The notes beneath the pieces are model-generated. The model saw only the letters and a list, made by a program, of their open reading frames with translations. It searched no databases and had not been told where the DNA came from. Of a DNA stretch of 31,961 bases, positions 1 to 13,098 are shown in pieces. The stretch is from NCBI GenBank assembly GCA_036339465.1, contig JAYZAY010000096.1:1-31961 (forward strand), read 5' to 3'. The stretch comes from Myxococcota bacterium. Lineage in GTDB: Bacteria > Myxococcota > XYA12-FULL-58-9 > JABJBS01. Made by a program: the position numbers and the translations under genes. Positions within the stretch are counted from its first letter, which is position 1; each line of letters opens with the position of its first letter.

Positions 1-1
1 T

Positions 2-283
2 CACCAAAAGTTTAATTGTGAGGTTTACGTTCTTAACAAGGACGAAGGCGGCCGACACACCCCATTTTTTAGTAACTATCGACCACAGTTCTACTTTCGA
101 ACCACGGACGTCACCGGCTCCATCAAGCTACCTGAAGGTACTGAGATGGTGATGCCTGGTGATAACGTCTCAATGGAAGTTGAACTCATCTGCCCAATCG
201 CAATGGAAAAAGAAGTGAGATTCGCGATTAGGGAAGGTGGCCGCACCATTGGTGCAGGTGTTGTTACTGACATCATTGAATAG
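2..283 (+). CDS. tuf: Elongation factor Tu, 3' part (5' end outside the window)
   Basis: Not in the ORF track. Frame 2 translated by hand gives [39 protein letters not shown]...MVMPGDN...[21 protein letters not shown], the EF-Tu domain III signature. TAG at 281-283. Confidence 0.99.
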
Positions 284-327
284 GTATTAGGGGGCGTGGA
301 AACGGCTCACCAGCCAACGCTAATTTC

Positions 328-364
328 ACTCGCCCGGAACGGAACAAGCGCGATCCGGGCGAGT
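328..364. repeat. Perfect 11-bp inverted repeat (stem-loop) between tuf and tRNA-Trp
   Basis: ACTCGCCCGGA (328-338) pairs with TCCGGGCGAGT (354-364), 15-nt loop, no U-tract on the + strand. Function not established. Confidence 0.8.
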
Positions 365-373
365 ATACGATGC

Positions 374-449
374 AGGTCAGTAGCTCAATTGGTAGAGTGG
401 CGGTCTCCAAAACCGTTGGTTGGGGGTTCGAGTCCCTCCTGGCCTGCCA
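374..449 (+). tRNA. tRNA-Trp (CCA)
   Basis: 76 nt. Acceptor stem AGGTCAG/CTGGCCT, D arm GCTC-AATTGGTA-GAGT, anticodon arm GCGGT-CTCCAAA-ACCGT, T loop GTTCGAG, encoded 3' CCA. Usual position upstream of secE. Confidence 0.98.
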
Positions 450-464
450 TTAAGGAATGAATAC

Positions 465-857
465 ATGGGGTCACGACATAGATTCGTAGTCGGCGCGATG
501 GCTATACTCTCCATCATCACCGCTCAGGTACTGGCGCGACTTCTTGAGTATGGGTGGGTTGAATTGGGCTTTCGTGATATCTACGTAGTGCCTCAGCAAC
601 TATTGTTACCCACCATGCTTGGGTATTTGATCGCAACCATCGCTGGTCTTGCATGTTATAAACACCCGACGACCCAAGGCCTAGCCACAGAAGTTGTCGA
701 CGAACTATCGAAGGTAACGTGGCCCACGAGAGATGAAACAAATCACGCAACGGTGGTGGTTATTGTCGCAGTAATCATCAGTTCCGGTTTTCTGGGTGTC
801 TTCGATGCATTATGGCTATGGTTGACCGACTGGCTACTTGGAGCCGGGCCCAGCTGA
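465..857 (+). CDS. secE: Preprotein translocase subunit SecE (3-TM type)
   Basis: ELSKVTWPTRDET motif followed by a hydrophobic helix, located between tRNA-Trp and nusG. Start moved to ATG 465 (AAGGA at 452-456) because the track start at 420 lies inside the tRNA. Confidence 0.95.
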   Translation: MGSRHRFVVGAMAILSIITAQVLARLLEYGWVELGFRDIYVVPQQLLLPTMLGYLIATIAGLACYKHPTTQGLATEVVDELSKVTWPTRDETNHATVVVIVAVIISSGFLGVFDALWLWLTDWLLGAGPS

Positions 858-914
858 CCTTAGCGATAACGACACGAATTAATAAGCCAATAACCACTTT
901 TGGGGTGACACGTA

Positions 915-1661
915 ATGTCCGAGGAAATGCTAGAGCAGAACACCGAAACGACCAACGCACCTGCTGTTGAGTCAGCATCGGCCGACCAATCGGAATCAGC
1001 GGCTGCTATTGACGCACATGGCCAATCGACAGACGGTGAAACTGATGGTGACCGCGAAGTCTCCAGTGGCAGTGAAAGCACCTCTGATAATGAGGGTCAC
1101 ACTACTGATCGAATTGAGCCTAAGAACGAGAACTGGAAATGGTACGTGGTCAATGCTCATTCGGGCCATGAGCACAGAGCCAAAGCTTCGCTAGAGGAAC
1201 GTATTCGGCAAAATGACTTAGCCGAATATTTCGGTGAAATTTTGATTCCGACCGAAAATGTAATTGAGCTCACTAAGAACGGGCAAAAGCGGACGAGCAA
1301 GAGGAAATTCTTTCCCGGCTATATGTTAGTGCAGATGGAAATCACCGACCATACCTGGCACTGTATAAACAACACCCCAAAAATCACCGGCTTTGTTGGA
1401 AGGACCACCAATCCCCCACCAATCCCTGATCACGAGGTAGGTCGTCTCACTAAACAGATCGATGAAGGTACACTTAAAGCGAAACCGAAGGTTAACTTTA
1501 GTGTTGGAGAGGACGTTCGAGTAACCGACGGACCGTTCGCTAATTTCAACGGTCTTGTCGATGATGTGAATGAAGATAAGGGTAAATTACGGGTCATGGT
1601 CTCCATTTTCGGACGATCGACCCCAGTCGAACTAGAGTTTGTTCAGGTCGAAAAGGCCTAG
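915..1661 (+). CDS. nusG: Transcription termination/antitermination factor NusG with an acidic N-terminal extension
   Basis: KWYVV...FFPGYMLVQM NGN domain and KOW end DGPFANFNG...VSIFGRSTPVELEFVQVEK. About 70 extra acidic/Ser/Thr residues precede the NGN domain. Confidence 0.98.
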   Translation: MSEEMLEQNTETTNAPAVESASADQSESAAAIDAHGQSTDGETDGDREVSSGSESTSDNEGHTTDRIEPKNENWKWYVVNAHSGHEHRAKASLEERIRQNDLAEYFGEILIPTENVIELTKNGQKRTSKRKFFPGYMLVQMEITDHTWHCINNTPKITGFVGRTTNPPPIPDHEVGRLTKQIDEGTLKAKPKVNFSVGEDVRVTDGPFANFNGLVDDVNEDKGKLRVMVSIFGRSTPVELEFVQVEKA

Positions 1662-1720
1662 ACAAAGAGCAGCGAATTTATTTGAGAAAGCGCTCAAGTA
1701 CCACCCAATGAGGTAATCAA

Positions 1721-2164
1721 ATGGCCAAGAAAATATCAGGCTACATAAAGCTACAAATTCCTGCCGGCAAGGCAAATCCATCTCCGCCCGTAGGCCCGGC
1801 TCTGGGCCAGCATGGTGTGAACATTATGCAGTTTTGCAAAGAGTTTAATGCTCGAACTCAGAAGCAGGGTGAAATGGTCATCCCAGTGGTTATTACCGTA
1901 TTCGCCGACCGCTCCTTTTCTTTCGTTACCAAAACCCCACCAGCTTCGATTCTTATCAAGCAAGCAGTGGGCTTGAAAATCACGAAAAAACCAGGTGCAG
2001 GTTCAAAGGAACCGAACAAAACCAAAGTAGCAAGCATCACGCGTGAGCAAGCTCTGGAGATCGCGACAACTAAGATGCCTGATTTGAACGCAAAGGATCT
2101 CGACGGTGCTACTGAGATGATCATTGGTACAGCTAAGAGCATGGGAATCGAGCTTCAGGACTAG
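1721..2164 (+). CDS. rplK: 50S ribosomal protein L11
   Basis: [52 protein letters not shown] upstream. Confidence 0.99.
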
Positions 2165-2227
2165 ACAATCGACTAGTACCCACCTATAAGGTCGCGCCAC
2201 GAGCGCAGGATAATATTGTGCCTGAGT

Positions 2228-2259
2228 CAGGAGATATCAAAATGATATCGATGGTACTG
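2228..2259 (+). promoter_or_regulatory. Putative L1-binding autoregulatory RNA element upstream of rplA
   Basis: CAG(2228-30)/CTG(2257-59) helix, GA opposite a 7-nt loop GATGGTA, and a closing hairpin GATATCA-AAA-TGATATC. It abuts the rplA RBS GAGGT (2261-65). Same architecture as known L1 mRNA sites. Confidence 0.55.
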
Positions 2260-2269
2260 TGAGGTAGTT

Positions 2270-2965
2270 ATGACAAAATTAAGCAAGCGAAACCATGCTA
2301 ACCGGAACCTCGTCGATCGGTCCAAGAAATACGATGTGCTTGAAGCGATCGATCTTCTTAAAAATGCGCAAGCTGCCAAATTTGATGAGTCCATTGAAGT
2401 GTCGGTAGGCCTAGGGGTTGACCCGAAGAAAAGTGACCAAATGGTCCGTGGTGTTTGCAAATTGCCGCATGGCAGTGGTAAGCCGGTAAGAATACTCGTT
2501 TTCGCCAAAGGCGATAAGGAGGAAGAGGCAAAGGCCGCCGGAGCGGACTTTGTGGGCTCCGAAGATCTCGTTGAAAAGATCAAAGCAGGGTGGTTGGAGT
2601 TTGACAAGGCGATCGCCACACCTGACATGATGCCTAAGGTAGGGCCCATCGCGCGCATTCTCGGACCACGTGGACTCATGCCTAATCCCAAGGTTGGGAC
2701 CGTAACCGTCGACGTGGGAAAAGCCGTAAACGAAGAAAAAGCCGGCAGGGTGGAATTCCGGGTCGACAAAGCAGGGATCGTCCACGCTGCGATCGGCAAA
2801 ATGAGTTTTGGTGCTGAAGATCTGAAGGCGAACTTTGATGCAGTTATGGACGCCATCTTAAAACTAAAGCCCGCAACAGCTAAGGGTACCTACATACAAA
2901 GCCTATCCTTTTCTAGCACGATGGGTCCCGGTGTTAGAGTTGATACCCAAAAAGTGCAAGGTTAA
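2270..2965 (+). CDS. rplA: 50S ribosomal protein L1
   Basis: AKFDESIE...[14 protein letters not shown]...[16 protein letters not shown]...STMGPG motifs. Confidence 0.99.
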
Positions 2966-2991
2966 GACCCCGAAATTGAAGGATGTGAGCA

Positions 2992-3513
2992 ATGAGTCGC
3001 GCCGAAAAGCAAGAAATCGTAACAGAGTTGAGTGAAACTCTGAGGGCCTCCGCAGGCACCATATTTGTTGACTATGCCGGAATTGATGTAAACACGATAA
3101 ATGATATCAGAAGTCAATTCAGAGCAGCGGGTGTTCGTTATCAAGTTGTTAAGAACTCACTAATGAGTCGGGCCCTAGAGCTGGCGGAGCTTGACAGTGA
3201 TGCCGCCTCGCTAAAAGGCAGTCCAACCGCCGTGATCTTTTGCAATGACGATCCAGTCAATGCTGCAAAACTCACGGCCGACCTATCCAAGAAGCACAAG
3301 AAACTAAAAGTTAAAGGCGGCATCCTCGAGTCCGAGATTATTAGCGCGGAGCAAGCAGTAGCTCTCTCCAAGATGCCTAATCGCGAAGAGCTACTCTCCC
3401 AGATTATAGGGCAGGCGCTTAGCCCAGGCCGCAAGATTGCTAGTCAAATTAAGAGTCCTAGCGGCAAGGTATTGGGTGCCATTGACAAATTTATCGAGAA
3501 TCTAGAAGGCTAA
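2992..3513 (+). CDS. rplJ: 50S ribosomal protein L10
   Basis: MSRAEKQEIV...DYAG...VVKNSL...KVKGGIL...LSKMPNREEL, located between rplA and rplL. Confidence 0.97.
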   Translation: MSRAEKQEIVTELSETLRASAGTIFVDYAGIDVNTINDIRSQFRAAGVRYQVVKNSLMSRALELAELDSDAASLKGSPTAVIFCNDDPVNAAKLTADLSKKHKKLKVKGGILESEIISAEQAVALSKMPNREELLSQIIGQALSPGRKIASQIKSPSGKVLGAIDKFIENLEG

Positions 3514-3586
3514 TCAAAAATCGAATCCACTCGAAAGTGGGTCTAAATGGGCTTTATAGAGAGCCCTCAACATAAGGAGTTCAGGA

Positions 3587-3997
3587 ATGGCTGACGCTGC
3601 TCGCACCTGGAATGGTGATATTAAAGACATCGGAGAGAAAATCGTTGGACTTACTCTCCTTCAAGCAAAAGAACTTAGCGACTATCTGAAAGATGAGCAT
3701 GGTTTGGAGGCTGCAGCCGGTGCAGCCGTCATAGCCGCCATGCCGTCGGCTGACGGCGCCGACGCAGCCGCTGCGGCTGAGCCGACAGAGTTCAACGTAG
3801 TACTAAAGTCTGCGGGCGCTAAGAAAATTCAGGTCATCAAGGAAGTCCGTGCGGCAACGGGCCTCGGCTTGAAGGAAGCCAAGGAACTTGTCGATGGTGC
3901 CCCAAAGACAGTTAAAGAAGCACTGCCCAAGGACGAGGCCGAAGAGTTGAAGAAAAAACTCGAGGCCGCTGGTGCTGAGGTTGAGCTGAAAGCTTAG
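3587..3997 (+). CDS. rplL: 50S ribosomal protein L7/L12
   Basis: Ala-rich hinge then EFNVVL...[27 protein letters not shown]...[20 protein letters not shown]. Confidence 0.99.
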
Positions 3998-4021
3998 TTT
4001 TGGTTCACGTTGCGCAGTCCT

Positions 4022-4057
4022 CTTGCCACAATCCCGGAAGATTGTGGCAAGTTTGTT
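4022..4057 (+). terminator. Rho-independent terminator/attenuator between rplL and rpoB
   Basis: 12-bp perfect stem CTTGCCACAATC (4022-33)/GATTGTGGCAAG (4040-51), loop CCGGAA, followed by TTTGTT. Confidence 0.8.
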
Positions 4058-4174
4058 GACTAGAAGTATGTTTTGAGACACTGATTCGAATCGGCCAGCC
4101 CGGTGGTTTGTATTGTCGCAAGCCTTCGTTTTGACGCTAGCCGGAAGCTTTGCCTGCAGGAGCAAGTCAACAGT

Positions 4175-7100
4175 ATGGCGAACTCTAAAATACAAGATAA
4201 TTTTCGCATTCGTAAAAGTTTTGGCCGCCACGAGGCGCTCGTCGAAGTACCCAATCTGATTGATACCCAAAAGAGAAGCTATGAAAAGTTCCTCCAACTG
4301 GATATCGATCCGATGCAGCGAGCAGATGTAGGCTTGCAAGCGGTCTTCAGCCGAGTCTTCCCGATTAAGGACTTTAACGAAACCGCATCGCTCGATTTCG
4401 TCAGATATGATATCGACCCGCCCAAATACGATGTTGAGGAATGTCACCAGAGGGGCATGACCTTTGCTGCTCCGATGAAGGTGTCGATCCAACTCATTAT
4501 TTGGGAGAAAGACGAAGTCACCGGCCAGCAGTCTGTCAGATCCATCAAGGAGCAGGACGTCTATTTCGGGGAAATCCCACTGATGACTGAACATGGTACC
4601 TTCATCATCAATGGCACCGAACGCGTTATTGTGTCCCAGCTGCACCGAAGTCCTGGCGCGTTCTTCTTTGTCAATCAAGACAAAACGAAGAGTGCGTCCA
4701 GCGGAATGCTCTTGCATAGTGCACGTATTATCCCGAATCGGGGTTCCTGGTTGGATTTCGAATTCGACACGAAGGATATCCTTCATGTCCGCATTGACCG
4801 TCGGCGTAAGATGCCGGCTACGATTCTCTTGAAGGGGTTGGGCTATAGTGCACAGGACCTGCTTGATTATTTCTACGCGAAAGAAAGCATTTATCTTCTT
4901 GATGGCGACGAATACGAAAAGTCGGTCAACCTGGAGTTACTTTTAGGGCAACGTGCCACCAAAGACATCATCGATCCTGATAGCAGCGATGTGATTGTTC
5001 GAAAAAATCGAAAATTTACGAGATCCGCGATTAAGAAAATACGTACCAAAGGTATCGAGCGTATCTCGGTCGACGCTGAGGATGTAGTGGGCACCATTGC
5101 TGCTATTGATATCATCGACGATGAAACTGGTGAAGTGCTCCTGCAGTCCAACGAAACAATTTCGGAGGAAAAATTAGCGTTGGTTCGAGAAAAGGGTGTT
5201 AAGCAGATCGAGACCCTGTTTATCGATGGCCTTAATGTTGGCTCCTATCTGCGCGACACTCTGCTGGTTGACAAAGTAGAAACCGAAGAGGACGCCCTGC
5301 TGGAAGTCTATCGGCGTTTGCGACCAGGTGAGCCCCCGACTCCTGATACAGCAAGGACTTTCTTCCATAATCTCTTTTTTAATGCCGAACGCTACGACCT
5401 ATCCAGAGTTGGTAGGTTAAAGCTGAACCACAAGTTTGACAATAACGAGGACATCAACAACACCGTCCTCAGTAAACGAGATATCATGGAAGTTGTCCGA
5501 TATCTCTTGGATCTCAAAAATGGTCGTGGGCAAGTAGACGATATTGACCACCTCGGAAATAGACGGGTTCGTGCCGTTGGTGAATTGCTTGAGAATCAAT
5601 TCCGAGTAGGGTTAGTACGTATGGAACGGGCGATCAGGGAACGCATGAGTTTACAAGAACTTGAAACCCTAATGCCGCATGATTTAATCAATGCGAAACC
5701 CGTGTCGGCTGTCGTTAAGGAATTCTTTGGCTCCTCACAACTGTCGCAGTTTATGGACCAGACTAACCCGCTTTCTGAGGTGACGCACAAACGCCGACTT
5801 TCCGCACTGGGGCCTGGTGGCCTCACGCGCGAAAGAGCGGGCTTCGAAGTCCGCGATGTTCACCCTACCCACTACGGGCGTATTTGTCCGATTGAAACCC
5901 CCGAGGGTCCGAATATCGGGCTGATCTCCTCGCTGAGCACCCACGCTAGGGTGAATGAATATGGCTTTGTCGAGACTCCTTACCGCTCCGTTTCGGAGAG
6001 CAGGGTCAGTGGGGACGTAAAATATTACAGTGCCTTACAGGAAGAAGCTCACGTCATCGCCCAGGCGAATGCCCATGTGAATTCTGATGGCACTTTCGCA
6101 GACGCCTTGGTCGCATGTCGTCGGGGTAGCGACACATTAATGATGCGTCCCGAAGAAGTGACCCTAATGGATGTGTCTCCGAAGCAACTCGTTTCGGTTG
6201 CCTCATCCTTGATCCCCTTTCGAGAAAATGATGATGCTAATCGGGCGCTCATGGGCTCGAACATGCAGCGACAGGCGGTGCCCTTGCTTCGTGCTGAGGC
6301 GCCCCTTGTCGGCACGGGAATGGAGCTCAATGTTGCCAGAGATTCCGGTGTTACCGTGACTGCCGCGCGAAGCGGTGTGGTGGCCGCCGTAGATGCTACC
6401 CGTATTGTTGTCAAAGCCGATGGTGAAGAAGCCCATTCCACAGACGTCGCTCAAGAAGTCGACATCTACAACCTGGTCAAGTATCAGCGTTCGAATCAAA
6501 ACACCTGTATCAATCAAAGGCCGATCATTCAACGAGGTGATCGGGTGCAGGTGGGTGATTGCATAGCCGATGGGCCATCCACGGATAGAGGCGAGTTGGC
6601 ACTTGGCCGCAATCTGGTCGTGGCGTTTATGCCTTGGCAAGGATACAACTTCGAGGATTCGATTCTCCTGAGCGAGAAACTTGTTCACGAGGATTACTAC
6701 ACCTCGGTTCATATCGAAGAGTTTGATTGTGTCTCGCGCGATACCAAATTAGGCAAAGAGGAGGTCACGCGGGATATCCCAAATGTTGGTGAAGAGCCAC
6801 TCGGGGATCTGGATGAGGCAGGTATTATAAGGATAGGCGCCGAAGTTCGCTCTGGGGATATCCTTGTTGGTAAGATCACGCCGAAAGGCGAGACTCAGCT
6901 TTCTCCTGAAGAAAAACTGCTTCGCGCTATCTTTGGTGAGAAGGCAGGCGACGTTAGGGATACCTCGCTACGGGTTCCACCTGGCGTCACTGGTACCGTC
7001 ATTGGCGCGAGGGTCTTTGCTCGCAAGGGCGTCGAAAAAGACGAACGTGCATTGCAGATCGAGGAGCAAGAAGAATCTCGGCTCCTCAAGGACCAGAAAG

Positions 7101-8317
7101 ATGAGGTTAAGATAATCGTTGATAGTGGCCGGCGTAAGATCAACGCTTTGGTGACTGGTAAGGCCACAGTCTCTAGGCTGGTTGATGACCGGGGTGATGT
7201 TATTCTAGAAAAGGATGTGACGCTCGACCCTGAGAATATGGCAGCGATACGCTACAAATACCTCTCGGAAATCAGAATTGGCGATGATGAGGTGGAAGAT
7301 CGCATTGATGCGATTCTTGAATCCGCAGACGAGAGGGTTGCGCTCGTTAAATTAACCTTCAGTGACAAGATCGCGCGTCTCAAAAAAGGCGATGAGCTCG
7401 CTCCTGGCGTAATTAAGATGGTTAAGGTTTATGTGGCGATTAAACGGCGACTGCAGGTTGGCGATAAGATGGCGGGGCGTCACGGAAACAAGGGCGTCAT
7501 TTCCCGGGTTCTGCCTGTGGAAGATATGCCTTATACCGTAGATGGTCGTCCCGTCGATATTTGTTTGAACCCACTAGGCGTACCAAGCCGGATGAATATT
7601 GGCCAAATTCTCGAAACCCACCTTGGATGGGGCGCTAAGCAGGTTGGACGTCGGCTTGAAGATATAATGGAGCAACATTTCTCCAGTGATGTTATCAAAA
7701 CCGAGTTGAAAAAGTTTTTTGATCACGAGAAGGACTCGAGCTTTATTGATTCACTCGATGTGGATGAGGTTAGGAAGCTGGCGGGGAGGCTGCAGCGAGG
7801 TATTCATTTCGCTACGCCCGTTTTTGAGGGCGCTCGAGAGATCGACATCGACAAAGTGCTCGAACAGGCTGGCGTAGCGACTTCGGGTCAAAGTGTCTTG
7901 TTTGATGGTCGTACAGGAGAACCTTTCGACCAACCGGTCACGGTCGGTGTTATGTACATGCTTAAGTTACATCACTTAGTAGATGATAAGATTCATGCGC
8001 GTTCAATTGGACCGTATTCTCTGGTCACCCAGCAGCCACTTGGTGGTAAGGCCCAATTTGGCGGGCAACGATTAGGTGAAATGGAGGTCTGGGCTATGGA
8101 AGCCTATGGTGCGGCTTACGCATTACAAGAGTTTTTAACTGTTAAGTCGGATGACGTTCAGGGCCGGACACGGATGTACGAAGCCATTGTCAAAGGCGAG
8201 AATACGCTTGAATCTGGCATTCCTGAATCGTTCAACGTACTAACGAAGGAACTCCAGGCTTTGTGTCTCGATGTTCAGATGATTCAAACGGATGACGTTT
8301 TAGAAACAGCTTCGTAG
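4175..8317 (+). CDS. rpoB: DNA-directed RNA polymerase subunit beta
   Basis: Rif region [57 protein letters not shown]. Start set at ATG 4175 ([23 protein letters not shown] upstream) rather than 4103. Confidence 0.99.
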
Positions 8318-8380
8318 TTAAGTGATCTGTTTTTAATACGGTCAGCTTGTTCCACCGGCTCAATAAGTGAGGGCGCTATT

Positions 8381-11300
8381 GTGAAAGATATTTTTTCGTT
8401 CTTCGAGAAACCGAAAGACCCAGTTAATTTCGATGCTATCCAGGTATCAATTGCGAGTCCCGAAAAGATCAGGGAGTGGTCTCATGGGGAGGTCAAAAAA
8501 CCGGAGACAATTAATTACCGAACCTTTAAGCCCGAACGCGATGGACTTTTCTGTGCTAAGATTTTCGGGCCGATTAAAGATTACGAGTGCCTATGTGGTA
8601 AGTACAAGCGCATGAAACACCGTGGAATCGTGTGTGAAAAGTGCGGTGTTGAGGTCATCCAGTCCAAGGTTCGTCGTGAGCGGCTTGGGCATATCAACCT
8701 AGCCACGCCCGTAGCACACATCTGGTTTCTGCGGTCGGTTCCATCCCGGATTGGGGCTATCCTGGATATGACGATGCGCGAGTTAGAAAAGGTGCTATAC
8801 TGTGAGGCATTTGTCGTCACCGAGCCAGGTAAACTCGAGTTGAAGTTAGGTGCTATGCTCTCTGAAGAGGAGTATCTAGAAGTCGTCGAGGAACACGGAC
8901 CCGGTGCTTTCACGGCGGAAATGGGCGGCGAGGCCGTACGATCCCTTCTTAGAGAAATCGACCTAGAAGTGTTATCTGCCGAATTGCGTGAGGAAATGCT
9001 GACGACCGCATCTGAGGCGAAGCGGAAGAAGACGGCTAAGAGGTTGAAAATCTGTGAAGCCCTACGAGACTCCGACAATAATCCCGAATGGCTAATGCTT
9101 GAAGTTATCCCCGTATTGCCTCCTGACCTGAGGCCTTTGGTGCCGTTGGATGGTGGCCGTTTTGCGACTTCTGATCTCAACGACCTTTACCGTCGCGTCA
9201 TTAATCGTAACAATCGGTTGAAGCGTCTGCAGGAGCTAAATGCACCTGAAATTATTATCCGCAACGAGAAACGGATGCTTCAGGAAGCTGTCGATGCTCT
9301 ATTTGACAATGGTAGGCGAGGTAAGAGTATTACAGGGCCCTCAAAACGACCTCTCAAGTCATTATCCGATATGATTAAGGGTAAGCAGGGCAGGTTTAGG
9401 CAGAACCTCCTTGGTAAACGGGTCGATTATTCTGCACGGAGTGTCATTGTTGTAGGACCTGAATTAAAACTGCATGAATGTGGTATTCCGAAGGTAATGG
9501 CTTTGGAGTTATTCAAGCCCTTTATTTACAACAAGCTAGAGGAGCGTGGTTACGTTACGACCATCAAAAGTGCTAAGAAGATGGTCGAAAAAGCAATGCC
9601 TGAAGTCTGGGACATTTTGGATGAGGTCATTCGAGAGCACCCGGTAATGTTGAACCGTGCGCCTACGTTGCACCGGCTTGGCATGCAGGCGTTTGAACCG
9701 GTCCTTATTGAGGGCAAAGCCATTCAGCTCCACCCACTGGTATGTACTGCCTTCAACGCGGATTTCGACGGTGACCAGATGGCTGTTCATGTTCCGCTTT
9801 CGGTTGAGGCCCAATTAGAAACCCGCGTGTTGATGATGTCCACCAACAACATCCTGAGTCCTGCGAACGGAAAACCAATCATTGTTCCAACTCAAGATAT
9901 CGTTCTCGGCTGTTATTATATGACCCGGGAGCGGCCCGGCGTGCATGGAGTTGGGATGCGCTTCGCTGGAATCGAGGAGGCAAGTGCCGCATATGATCAT
10001 GGTGCGGTCGACCTACAAGCTGCGATTGAATGTCGGATTGGCGGCGAGATGGTTAAAACCACGGTAGGGCGCGTATTGTTGTATGATATCGTCCCTAAAG
10101 AACTGCCTTTTAAATTGGTAAACAAGGTTATGGACAAAAAGGCCCTCGGTGCGTTGATTGACGCATGTTACCGAAGGTGCGGGCAGAAGGGGACGGTCCT
10201 CCTTGCAGATCAATTAAGAACGCTGGGTTATCAAAATGCAACCAAGGCCGGTATCTCGATTTCTATTAAGGACATGAGTATCCCAGAAAAGAAAACCCTT
10301 TTCATCGATAGGGCGCAGGAGAATGTAGCGGAAATTGAAAATCAGTACAATGAAGGTCTGATCACAGACGGTGAGCGATACAATAAAGTGATCGACATTT
10401 GGTCGCGCGTGGCGGAAGAGCTTGAAGGCGAGTTGATGAGCCATATCGCGACTGAGGACTTTGTTCCCAAATCAGGCGACCCCGTTAAAACAGCCTCCAT
10501 GAATTCGGTTTTTATCATGGCTGATTCAGGTGCTCGTGGCTCGAGACAGCAAATTAAGCAGCTGGCGGGCATGCGTGGGTTGATGGCTAAACCGTCGGGT
10601 GAAATCATCGAAACTCCTATTACTGCGAATTTTCGTGAAGGCCTTTCGGTCTTGCAGTACTTCATCTCCACACACGGTGCGCGAAAAGGTTTGGCGGATA
10701 CTGCTTTGAAGACTGCAAACTCTGGGTATTTAACCAGACGTCTTGTGGATGTCGCGCAGGATACGGTCGTAACAGAATTTGACTGCGGGACTCTTGATGG
10801 TATCGAAATTGAAGCATTGATCGAGGCCGGCGAGGTGATTGAGCCCTTGGGTGACCGAATCCTTGGTCGTGTGGCCCTCGAAGATATTCTTCATCCGCAC
10901 ACCGACGAGCCTATCGCAGCGGCTGGGGAACTCATTGACGAGATTAAGGTCAAGCAGATCAATGATTCACCAATTCGCTTGGTCCGTGTACGTTCGCCTC
11001 TGACGTGTCAGACGAAACGTGGTATCTGCGTGGAATGCTACGGCCGTGATTTATCACGTGGGCACAAGGTTAATATTGGTGAAGCCGTCGGTGTCATCGC
11101 TGCTCAATCCATTGGGGAGCCTGGTACCCAGTTGACGATGAGAACTTTCCATATCGGAGGCATTGCTTCCGGGCGGGCAGCTCAGTCGACGCTTGAAGCT
11201 AGAGGCCCAGGCTCGTTGCGCTATATTAATCTTCACTCGGTACGGAAGGGTGATGGTTCAATCGTTGTTATGAGTCGGAACGGGGAGATCGCAGTTATAG

Positions 11301-12550
11301 ATGAAAGCGGGCGGGAGCGGGAGCGCTACGTCGTCAACTACGGTGCTACCATGAAAGTCGCGGACCAGACTGAAGTAAAGGCTGGCGATGCGCTTTGTGA
11401 ATGGGACCCCTTTGCCGTTCCAATTCTAACCGAGGTTTCTGGCGCGGTTCAGTATGGTGATATCATCGAAGGTGTCACCATGCAGGAGCAGTTGGACGAC
11501 ATCACTGGCCTGTCCCGACGAACCATTATTGAATCTAAAGACAATGATACGCGGCCAAGGCTGATCATCGGGACACACACAGGAGAATCAGAAACAGCCG
11601 GTGTTTCGGAAAATGGAGCGCGCTATTTTCTGCCGATTGGGACGAACATTGCGGTGCATCCCGGTGACGTCATGGAAGCAGGTGACGTTATTGCTCGGAT
11701 TCCTAGAGAAACAACCAAAGACAAGGACATTACAGGCGGCCTTCCTCGCGTCGCGGAGCTATTCGAGGCCCGTAAGCCCAAGGAACACGCTTTGATTTCT
11801 GAAATCGATGGGATTGTTCAATTTGGAAATGACACTAAGGGTAAACGCAAGGTTATTATTCAGCCAGAAATAGGTGAGCCAGCAGAGTATTTGGTCCCCA
11901 AACGGCGGCATCTTACGGTGCAAGAGAATGACCGCGTCCGCGCTGGCGATCCACTCATGGATGGGCCGGCCAACCCGCACGATATTTTGAGGGTCCTTGG
12001 TGAGAAAGCACTTGGCAAGTATCTTGTGGATGAAATTCAGGAAGTCTATAGACTTCAGGGCGTCCGTATCAATGACAAACATATCGAAGCGATTGTTCGT
12101 CAGATGCTTAGAAGAGTTCGGATCAAAAAGGCTGGCGATACTCGCTTCCTGCTCGAGGAGCAGGTAGAGAAAGTTGAGTTTGAAGCGGAGAACGAGCGGG
12201 TAATGCAGTTGGGAGGTAGTCCGGCAATCGGGGAGCCAATGTTACTTGGCATCACGAAGGCATCTTTATCAACCCAATCATTTATATCCGCCTCCTCCTT
12301 TCAAGAAACGACGAAGGTGTTGACTGAAGCCTCCTTGGGAGGGCGAATCGACCGACTATTGGGATTGAAAGAAAATGTTATCATGGGGCGTTTAATCCCA
12401 GCTGGTACTGGTTTGAGCGGTTATAGTAAGTTGTCCTCGGTGGTAGATCCTGAGTTACTGGAAGTTGACGAGGAATACGAGATGACCATCGAAGATCGCG
12501 AAGGACCACTCTTAGCAAATCTGCCAATGGGATTTGCGGTCAACGAATAG
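8381..12550 (+). CDS. rpoC: DNA-directed RNA polymerase subunit beta'
   Basis: GTG start, Zn ribbon CLCGKYK...CEKC, catalytic [12 protein letters not shown], and trigger loop [13 protein letters not shown] followed by a large SI3-type insertion. Confidence 0.99.
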
Positions 12551-12570
12551 TGTGAATTACGCATCGGGTT

Positions 12571-13098
12571 GTGGACATGTTGTTGAGGTGGTCGTCGGGT
12601 TTGGCTAGGGTAATTTTACTCAGCTCGTGTTTGATTGTTACTGGAGCCTCCACTTTAGATCACAGTCGGTTCGTTGGCCCTGAAAAATGTGGATCCTGTC
12701 ACGAGTTTGCGATGAGTAGGTGGTTAGACGGGCCGCACTCGTCGGCACTCAGTTCTTTAAGCGAGAGCGAGCGTAACAATGCAAGATGTACGTCCTGCCA
12801 CAGTCCGGAGGATGGTCTAGAAATCAAGGTAAGCAAGCACCTTTCGAGTGTGACGTGTGAATCGTGTCACGGTGCGGGCCGCTATTACCATCAGGATTAT
12901 GTGATGCGGGATAAGGAGTTATCCAAGGCAGTCGGCCTAGTCCTCGTGGAGAAAGCTCAGTGTCGTCGTTGCCACACTCTTGATTCTCCAAGTATTGAAA
13001 AATTTGACTACGAGGAGTTTTGGCAAAGGATTTCCCACTCCAAACGGGACCGTTTGGCATGGGAAAGAAGTAAAGGTAGAAATCCAGCAGCGGAATAA
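12571..13098 (+). CDS. Secreted tetraheme c-type cytochrome (c554-like family)
   Basis: N-terminal hydrophobic signal-like segment and four CxxCH motifs: CGSCH, CTSCH, CESCH(G), CRRCH. Start may be ATG 12577. Confidence 0.9.
   Translation: MDMLLRWSSGLARVILLSSCLIVTGASTLDHSRFVGPEKCGSCHEFAMSRWLDGPHSSALSSLSESERNNARCTSCHSPEDGLEIKVSKHLSSVTCESCHGAGRYYHQDYVMRDKELSKAVGLVLVEKAQCRRCHTLDSPSIEKFDYEEFWQRISHSKRDRLAWERSKGRNPAAE

Follow-up and report, generated by a model that had tools for sequence, protein, structure and literature searches.

The window, by which we mean the whole 31,961-nucleotide stretch that was analysed, comes from an order of uncultured marine Myxococcota-like bacteria; this is referred to below as the window's order, and the phylum containing it as the host phylum. 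The first 12.5 kb of the window hold an ordinary nusG-rplKAJL-rpoBC cluster with all genes on the + strand (Table 1). The L12 start and the L10 tail to which the initial annotation drew attention were found exactly where it had placed them within this cluster, as indicated by the open reading frames and by Pfam, and coordinate 3376 corresponds to codon 129 of rplJ. The L10 is a uL10 by its PF00466 match over residues 1-98 (E 3.7e-24) and by the rplL gene directly downstream, and the L12 is a bL12 by both of its domains (PF16320, E 1.4e-10, 41.2 bits against a cut-off of 25; PF00542, E 1.4e-31). The first ~70 residues of NusG form an acidic extension that is unmatched in most relatives.

Table 1. 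Features of the nusG-rplKAJL-rpoBC region of the window, with the segments of rplJ and rplL that are compared in the text (NTD, N-terminal domain; types I and II are defined in the text).
Feature	Coordinates	Strand	Description
tuf, 3' end only	upstream of tRNA	+	
tRNA	374-446	+	Rfam
ORF	420-857	+	
nusG	915-1661	+	248 aa; Pfam NusG (E 4.8e-27) and KOW
rplK (L11)	1721-2164	+	Pfam L11; host-like
rplA (L1)	2270-2965	+	Pfam L1; host-like
rplJ (L10)	2992-3513	+	173 aa; Pfam Ribosomal_L10 (E 3.7e-24)
rplJ, L10 residues 1-135, rRNA-binding N-domain	2992-3396	+	weakly host-like
rplJ 3' end, L10 residues 136-173 and stop, C-terminal helix	3397-3513	+	type II-like
rplJ-rplL spacer, 73 nt	3514-3586	+	inside the candidate replaced patch
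rplL (L12)	3587-3997	+	136 aa; Pfam Ribosomal_L12_N and Ribosomal_L12 C-terminal domain
rplL 5' part, L12 residues 1-45, dimerisation/L10-binding domain (NTD)	3587-3721	+	type II
rplL hinge and C-terminal factor-binding domain, residues 46-136 and stop	3722-3997	+	
rpoB	4175-8317	+	host-like; ATG where the alignment of relatives starts; ORF opens with GTG at 4103
rpoC	8381-12550	+	ORF

The bacterial stalk is composed of uL10-(bL12)4-8, with the N-terminal dimers of L12 carried on helix alpha-8 of L10; this binding of L12 dimers by the L10 C-terminal helix is seen in the Thermotoga L10-L12 structure. A survey is said to have compared L12 copy number with the length of the L10 helix. The two proteins encoded in the window resemble other bacterial stalk proteins in their Pfam membership, length, domain order and gene order. 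The known variation of the stalk lies in the number of dimers on L10, whereas the variation reported here lies in the sequence class of the interface, and no change in tail length is visible in the L10 of the window's order.

At the DNA level the GC content is flat across the region (0.48-0.52) and a composition scan of the region showed no anomaly, an absence of trace that would be expected for an old event. A search of positions 1-13000 against Rfam returned no L10 leader and no element other than the tRNA. The window genome, which is 92.8% complete, contains a single rplJ match and a single rplL match; their position is native and the synteny is common to relatives.

Contigs from sequencing runs of four studies match the window with 0-1 differences. 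They bridge positions 2900-3578, 3227-3747, 3020-3409 and 3573-3983, and contigs of three runs cross or enter the rplJ-rplL spacer with zero differences, although one of the bridging runs may be the source of the window itself. With the window taken from a 102-contig assembly, it might be suspected that assembly or binning had merged a piece of planctomycete DNA with a Myxococcota-like contig. Against such an artefact stand the contigs of four separate studies that span the candidate junctions, the unbroken reading frames, the same arrangement in 16 further members of the order, drawn from nine families, and the fact that the N-terminal domains of Planctomycetota L12 are at most 71% identical to that of the window, which is far from near-identity. 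We regard its probability as negligible, and the concern over a chimera attached to the original observation is removed by these contigs and by the relatives.

Of the 21 genomes sampled from the window's family or order, 16 gave a match to L12. Fifteen of these are full-length (68-80% identity); in the sixteenth a contig ends within the gene, leaving an N-terminal fragment of residues 1-46 (80%). Completeness is 65-94% for the five genomes that lack a match. All of the matches bear an N-terminal extension of ~8 residues together with the distinctive L12 NTD, and since the 16 genomes span nine families, all of those sampled, the feature predates these families. Relatives do therefore share the pattern, and the feature, in the native position as the initial annotation has it, is common to the whole order. 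Nine genomes from other families of the host phylum carry an ordinary L12, the alignment of which to the window begins only at residue 10-23.

The same distinction was obtained when 201 host-phylum genomes were drawn evenly, a sample that for both queries includes the unpublished genome G195, whose results resemble those of the remaining non-members of the order. With the whole of L12 as the query, the genomes of the order gave E <= 5e-52, with the exception of the fragment (G015, E 1.2e-18), and all 170 matches outside the order had E values of at least 5.7e-37 and started near residue 10. With the NTD alone (residues 1-48), strong matches (E <= 1.7e-15, 63-100% identity) were confined to 17 of the 201 genomes, namely that of the window (G000) and 16 others of its order, with none from elsewhere in the phylum. 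The next matches, in six of the 201 genomes, were borderline (E 3.5e-4 to 9.5e-4) and 178 genomes gave nothing, leaving a gap of 11 orders of magnitude between the order and the remainder of its phylum.

The initial annotation described the L12 N-terminus as unlike that of the host phylum and like that of Planctomycetota, and the identities agree. Over L12 residues 1-45 the median identity to the window is 80% within the order and 29% for the host phylum otherwise (maximum 38%, 23 genomes), against 56% (maximum 71%) for 31 Planctomycetota and a range of 51-62% for Fibrobacterota, the loci from these two phyla having been chosen by likeness to the query so that their identities are flattered; Rhodobacterales show 47-51%. 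For L10 residues 129-173 the medians are 44% within the order, 24% for the host phylum (maximum 33%, n = 29) and 36% for Planctomycetota likewise picked for likeness (maximum 47%, n = 29). This tail evolves fast, with medians of 44-45% within the order and 33-36% to Planctomycetota (maximum 47-56%). The corresponding medians for the host phylum versus Planctomycetota are 68% and 65% for L12 residues 66-136, 32% (maximum 40%) and 27% (maximum 32%) for L10 residues 1-128, 55% and 48% for L1, 63% and 51% for L11, and 59% and 39% for the NusG core, while RpoB is 59-71% identical to the host phylum and 42-47% to Planctomycetota.

Evenly sampled Planctomycetota numbered 151, and in 22 of them L12 is nearer to that of the window than in any host-phylum genome outside the order; the best whole-L12 match (E 7e-49, 68% over residues 3-135) compares with 5.7e-37 for the best host-phylum genome outside the order. 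The NTD-only query reached E 7e-17 in this phylum, with only 30 of the 151 genomes matching this NTD type, and ten low-scoring Planctomycetota that were fetched have an NTD that is of type I, as defined below, or otherwise divergent. Five of 61 sampled Fibrobacterota have an L12 at 64-70% identity, as close as the best Planctomycetota. A pattern scan with one genome per species gave, among the matches listed, one genome of the window's order, Planctomycetota metagenome-assembled genomes (MAGs), a Fibrobacteria MAG, Rhodobacterales and Bacteroidota. The phyla sampled here are those among the matches listed, and the 80 loci used do not amount to a global ranking; groups such as Verrucomicrobiota, Chlamydiota, Acidobacteriota, Desulfobacterota and Bdellovibrionota lie outside the sample, so a closer donor phylum may exist. 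In a protein-cluster atlas queried with L12 residues 1-50, Planctomycetota were the commonest taxon of the nearest clusters, which we note as a lead only.

A tree of the combined module (L10 residues 125-173 and L12 residues 1-48), calculated by a careful maximum-likelihood (ML) search on 66 rows and 90 columns, divides the sequences into two classes with a split support of 100/99. We name these classes type I and type II. Type I comprises the host phylum, most Pseudomonadota, Bacillota, Actinomycetota and Ignavibacteriota, and type II comprises Planctomycetota as sampled in the tree, Fibrobacterota, most Bacteroidota, Rhodothermota, Rhodobacterales and the window's order, whose L12 NTD thus falls on the type II side. 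The order is monophyletic (98/94) within a set of 14 Planctomycetota, three Fibrobacterota and ten rows of its own (98/84). The same picture came from quick trees of 102 and 77 rows; across the three trees, the branch between the types is long (about 0.5-0.8) with a support of 99-100, and across the module trees the clade of the order has a support of 96-98. Both types are present within Planctomycetota, Fibrobacterota, Bacteroidota (taken together with Ignavibacteriota) and Alphaproteobacteria, and from these trees the interface appears to exist in two discrete types distributed patchily over at least five phyla.

Compared with the type II loci of Planctomycetota (such as L035, L121, L123 and L114) and of a Fibrobacterota subclade (L040 and L154-L157), the locus in the window has the same N-terminal extension, the same core motif of helices 1-2 and, in common with them, turns of the Gly-Pro-Gly type in the L10 tail; the NTD identity is 55-60% at the median and up to 78%. 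It differs from them in its distant flanks, RpoB being 42-49% identical to theirs as against 59-71% within the host phylum, and in that the order forms a clade separate from these loci (support 96-98). Pairwise NTD medians are 55% between the order and type II Planctomycetota and 56% within type II Planctomycetota, and to the host phylum they are 27% for the order and 25% for Planctomycetota. The window's order has the extension (~6-10 residues before the first helix), as do five Fibrobacterota and most type II Planctomycetota in the alignment; it is absent from the nine aligned host-phylum rows and from Rhodobacterales, Fibrobacteraceae and Bacteroidota. The label 'Planctomycetota-type' given to the interface at the outset is only partly apt: the resemblance is real, but only 30 of the 151 Planctomycetota match and a subclade of Fibrobacterota is equally close. 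In approximately unbiased (AU) tests neither a position of the order outside the Planctomycetota/Fibrobacterota crown (p 0.33) nor one outside all other type II sequences (p 0.27) was rejected. With this nesting not significant, with five of 61 Fibrobacterota equally close and with most of the sampled Planctomycetota lacking the type, the proposal that Planctomycetota were the source is not supported as it was put.

Grouping the order with its host phylum was rejected for the module by the AU test (dlnL 70.1, p 5.7e-5; dlnL 94.9, p 7.4e-6 under LG+G4+F) and for the L12 NTD alone (dlnL 50.6, p 0.012). In the flanks it was the opposite grouping that failed, as had been anticipated from their host-like appearance. 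RpoB rejects a group of the order with Planctomycetota and Fibrobacterota (dlnL 847, p 6e-69), and NusG+L11+L1 reject the order with Planctomycetota (p 0.036) and with Fibrobacterota added (p 0.0017). The NusG+L11+L1 tree nests the order in 14 host-phylum rows (SH-aLRT 97). A further set, L11+L1+L10 N-domain+L12 C-terminal domain (CTD), under C20 did not reject the order with Planctomycetota and Fibrobacterota (dlnL 6.9, p 0.36), but it is weakly informative and the tree of the flank alignment came from a quick search; RpoB and NusG+L11+L1 were tested separately for this reason. On these trees the module is in significant conflict with its flanks (RpoB and NusG+L11+L1, the C20 flank set giving p 0.36), as a putative in situ displacement would leave it.

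The separate segments are short (41-95 columns) and their individual tests were less decisive than that of the module. No constraint is rejected by the L10 N-domain or by the L12 CTD; in the tree of the former the order is sister to three host-phylum genomes (SH-aLRT 84), and in that of the latter the order is never a single clade in the bipartitions examined. The breakpoints are therefore not fixed by these tests, and the transferred unit could be as little as the L12 NTD or as much as all of rplL or of rplJL.

The distribution of individual sites places the conflict more closely. We counted positions at which the consensus of the order matches Planctomycetota and not the host phylum, and the reverse. 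L12 residues 1-45 have 16 Planctomycetota-type and two host-type sites, and L10 residues 129-173 have three (residues 131, 143 and 146) and none, giving 19 foreign sites against two for the module. The counts are three and nine for L10 residues 1-128, one and four for L12 residues 46-136, four and 37 for L1, and one and 26 for L11, or nine against 76 when these four are pooled. Site log likelihoods, compared between two constrained trees of which the host-side one also forces monophyly of the phylum, with some cost in L1, favour Planctomycetota/Fibrobacterota by -76.7 over L12 residues 1-45 and -14.2 over L10 residues 136-173 and are near zero elsewhere in the two proteins (about +5.6 for the L10 N-domain and -6.8 for L12 residues 46-136). 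The foreign-leaning segments are contiguous on the DNA (~3397-3721), and the site scans suggest edges near L10 residue 136 and L12 residue 45. Two earlier claims are narrowed by these results. That of a xenologous L12 is supported for the NTD rather than for the whole gene, the CTD rejecting nothing and appearing, if anything, host-like. That of a mosaic L10 finds agreement in the ML placement, the site patterns and the site likelihoods of the tail, all of which lean foreign, but not in the AU test of the tail alone.

The conflict between the trees, the spread of the feature among genomes and the soundness of the assembly are observations; from them we infer a transfer together with its direction, its extent and its arrival as a single patch. 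The explanation that we favour, at about an even chance of being correct, is an old in situ xenologous replacement of a patch of ~0.3 kb (about 3397-3721) from a Planctomycetota- or Fibrobacterota-like donor. An ancestor of the order would have exchanged, at the native rplKAJL-rpoBC position, the part by which L12 docks on L10. The replaced part would include at a minimum the short N-terminal extension of L12 and the dimerisation/L10-binding domain that follows it, and probably the adjoining L10 C-terminal helix as well. What came in would be a type II interface, as carried by some Planctomycetota and some Fibrobacterota; other members of the host phylum have type I. The parts that contact the rest of the host machinery, namely the L10 N-domain (23S rRNA and L11) and the L12 CTD (translation GTPases), would be native or indistinguishable from native. 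Since the rplJ 3' end, the spacer and the rplL 5' end are contiguous, one recombination patch of ~0.3 kb would carry both interacting surfaces.

The L10 half of this replacement is where a narrower event has to be weighed, in which only L12 (its NTD or the whole gene) was acquired and the native L10 helix adapted later, converging on the residues that were needed. For the L10 tail alone the grouping with the host phylum is not rejected (dlnL 6.4, p 0.35), with no more than the three foreign-type sites noted above; L10 tails are fast, and the likeness to Planctomycetota may sit at constrained interface positions. In Rhodobacterales, moreover, the L12 NTD is of type II and the L10 tail falls on the other side of the split, among type I sequences, a mixed pair indicating that the two halves need not travel together. 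Set against this are the ML placement of the tail on the type II side (SH-aLRT 93), the foreign lean of the site likelihoods over L10 residues 136-173, the position of the tail next to the L12 NTD on the DNA, and the pairwise identities, in which tails of the order are 27% identical to those of the host phylum, the same as type II Planctomycetota tails, while host-phylum tails are 40.5% alike. In our view the acquisition of L12 alone is unlikely, though it is the strongest of the rival accounts.

It is also conceivable that there was no transfer, and that the order's own substitutions, by drift or under selection, turned a type I interface into one resembling type II, two co-evolving surfaces having converged. 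Given so small an interface, with contacts made by almost every NTD residue, few states may be allowed; the nesting within the donor phyla is not significant; and two host-phylum genomes (family f12) have a somewhat intermediate NTD (46% identity over residues 10-46). Convergence would, however, have had to produce the Planctomycetota-type residue at 16 of 45 NTD positions, with two of host type, and the N-terminal extension that the order and type II have in common as well. It would also have had to bring the NTDs of the order to as much as 71-78% identity with single Planctomycetota, their median with respect to the host phylum being 27%, across a long and fully supported branch (100/99) with an AU p of 6e-5. 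We consider this account improbable.

The presence of both types within Planctomycetota, Fibrobacterota, Bacteroidota (with Ignavibacteriota) and Alphaproteobacteria could instead reflect a different vertical history, in which both are ancient and type II persisted in a deep-branching order, type I having been kept or fixed elsewhere in the phylum. The order possibly lies outside the crown of the other type II sequences, as noted above, and same-class relatives outside the order are absent from the sample, which leaves the order as perhaps the sole member of its class. Retention of this kind agrees poorly with the NusG+L11+L1 and L10 N-domain trees, which nest the order among host-phylum families and not at the base (SH-aLRT 92-97), and with the NTDs of the order, which fall inside the spread of type II Planctomycetota and Fibrobacterota, where a split older than the phyla predicts otherwise. 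Many parallel losses would also be required, and we hold vertical retention to be just as doubtful as convergence.

Ribosomal proteins serve as vertical markers and are thought to be resistant to transfer because many partners must fit. S14 and the Zn-ribbon ribosomal proteins, along with S4, are cases of ribosomal protein gene transfer, and mosaic operons were reportedly described by Omelchenko et al. in 2003. In situ xenologous displacement, of S4 for example, resembles the replacement favoured here in that a core translation gene lies in place as a single copy while its phylogeny conflicts with the flanks and the classification. In those cases a gene is displaced, whereas here the conflict is confined to a portion of a gene, probably together with a portion of its neighbour, the two encoding mutually binding surfaces. 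Transfer and in situ displacement of other ribosomal proteins are known; PMC3087516 deals with the horizontal transfer of S4, in zinc and non-zinc forms. The freely accessible literature that was covered yielded no account of a transfer of L10/L12 or of a pair of interface classes, and neither did the passages on the subject in PMC8046335, PMC3353972 and PMC3444138.

A broader reading, which we offer tentatively and regard as somewhat unlikely, is that the two interface classes have been exchanged repeatedly between phyla as a small cassette at the rplJ-rplL junction, the rRNA-binding and factor-binding parts remaining native. The window's order, Rhodobacterales and the splits within Planctomycetota, Fibrobacterota and Bacteroidota would be separate instances of such exchange. 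If this reading is true, the co-transfer of both binding surfaces would be an escape from the usual barrier to transfer for a component of a complex. The conflicting signal in the window's order is limited to two surfaces that bind each other and, if the transfer is true, a self-contained interaction module would have moved where whole components cannot. At least in this order and in Rhodobacterales, L12, and perhaps L10, would bring a non-vertical signal into concatenated marker sets. Partner specificity in the ribosomal stalk could also be tested in a simple way with the two classes.

Both sequence classes of the L12 N-domain occur among the Planctomycetota, as a contrast of loci L162–L171 with L035, L114–L133 and L172–L173 indicates. 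The type II query, type II being the class found in the window's own order, was matched by only 30 of the 151 planctomycetotal genomes sampled. Those low-scoring Planctomycetota that were retrieved are type I-like in both N-domain and L10 tail, and in the tree of the module (L10 residues 125–173 with L12 residues 1–48) they cluster with Bacillota and Actinomycetota.

In the Fibrobacterota, three states of the L12 N-domain were found when loci L040 and L154–L157 were contrasted with L061, L062, L159, L160 and L161. An N-extended type II form sharing 64–70% identity with the window's L12 is present in five of the 61 genomes sampled, the Fibrobacteraceae have type II with the extension absent, and at least one genome (L161) is type I. 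Loci L045, L050, L055 and L058 were likewise set against the remaining Bacteroidota loci. Type I modules are carried by three Bacteroidota MAGs and one Ignavibacteriales MAG, while the rest of the Bacteroidota and the Rhodothermota in the compared set are type II.

The features of the window outside the module are collected in the table below. The NusG extension is unmatched in most relatives, with alignments beginning near residue 70. A search of window positions 1–13000 against Rfam (E ≤ 0.1) returned neither an L10 leader nor any other ribosomal-protein leader. With its four CxxCH motifs, the 175-residue ORF resembles a small multihaem cytochrome of the c type.

Other features of the window
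Feature	Position	Remark
tRNA	374–446	Sole Rfam match in 1–13000; overlaps start of ORF 420–857
NusG N-terminal extension	915–1125	Acidic, low-complexity, ~70 residues
rplA–rplJ gap	2966–2991	Just 26 nt
ORF, 175 aa	12571–13098	Four CxxCH motifs; immediately 3' of rpoC

Within the host phylum, the L10 tail is longer in two genomes of family f12, G111 (L134) and G033 (L138), and includes three repeats that contain Pro-Gly, which may point to a third L12 dimer site. The L12 N-domain is somewhat intermediate in both; that of G111 is 46% identical to the window's over residues 10–46.

The L12 N-domain of the Rhodobacterales (loci L036–L043, L046, L051, L068, L072 and L099; genomes G204 and G508) is of type II, lacks the extension and is 47–51% identical to the window's; the remaining Alphaproteobacteria of the compared set are type I. 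Strong matches were obtained in just two of 151 Alphaproteobacteria in an evenly drawn sample. The rhodobacteral L10 tail is placed on the type I side of the split, and the flanking genes are alphaproteobacterial. The Rhodobacterales may represent a second, independent case, in which the change is limited to the L12 half.
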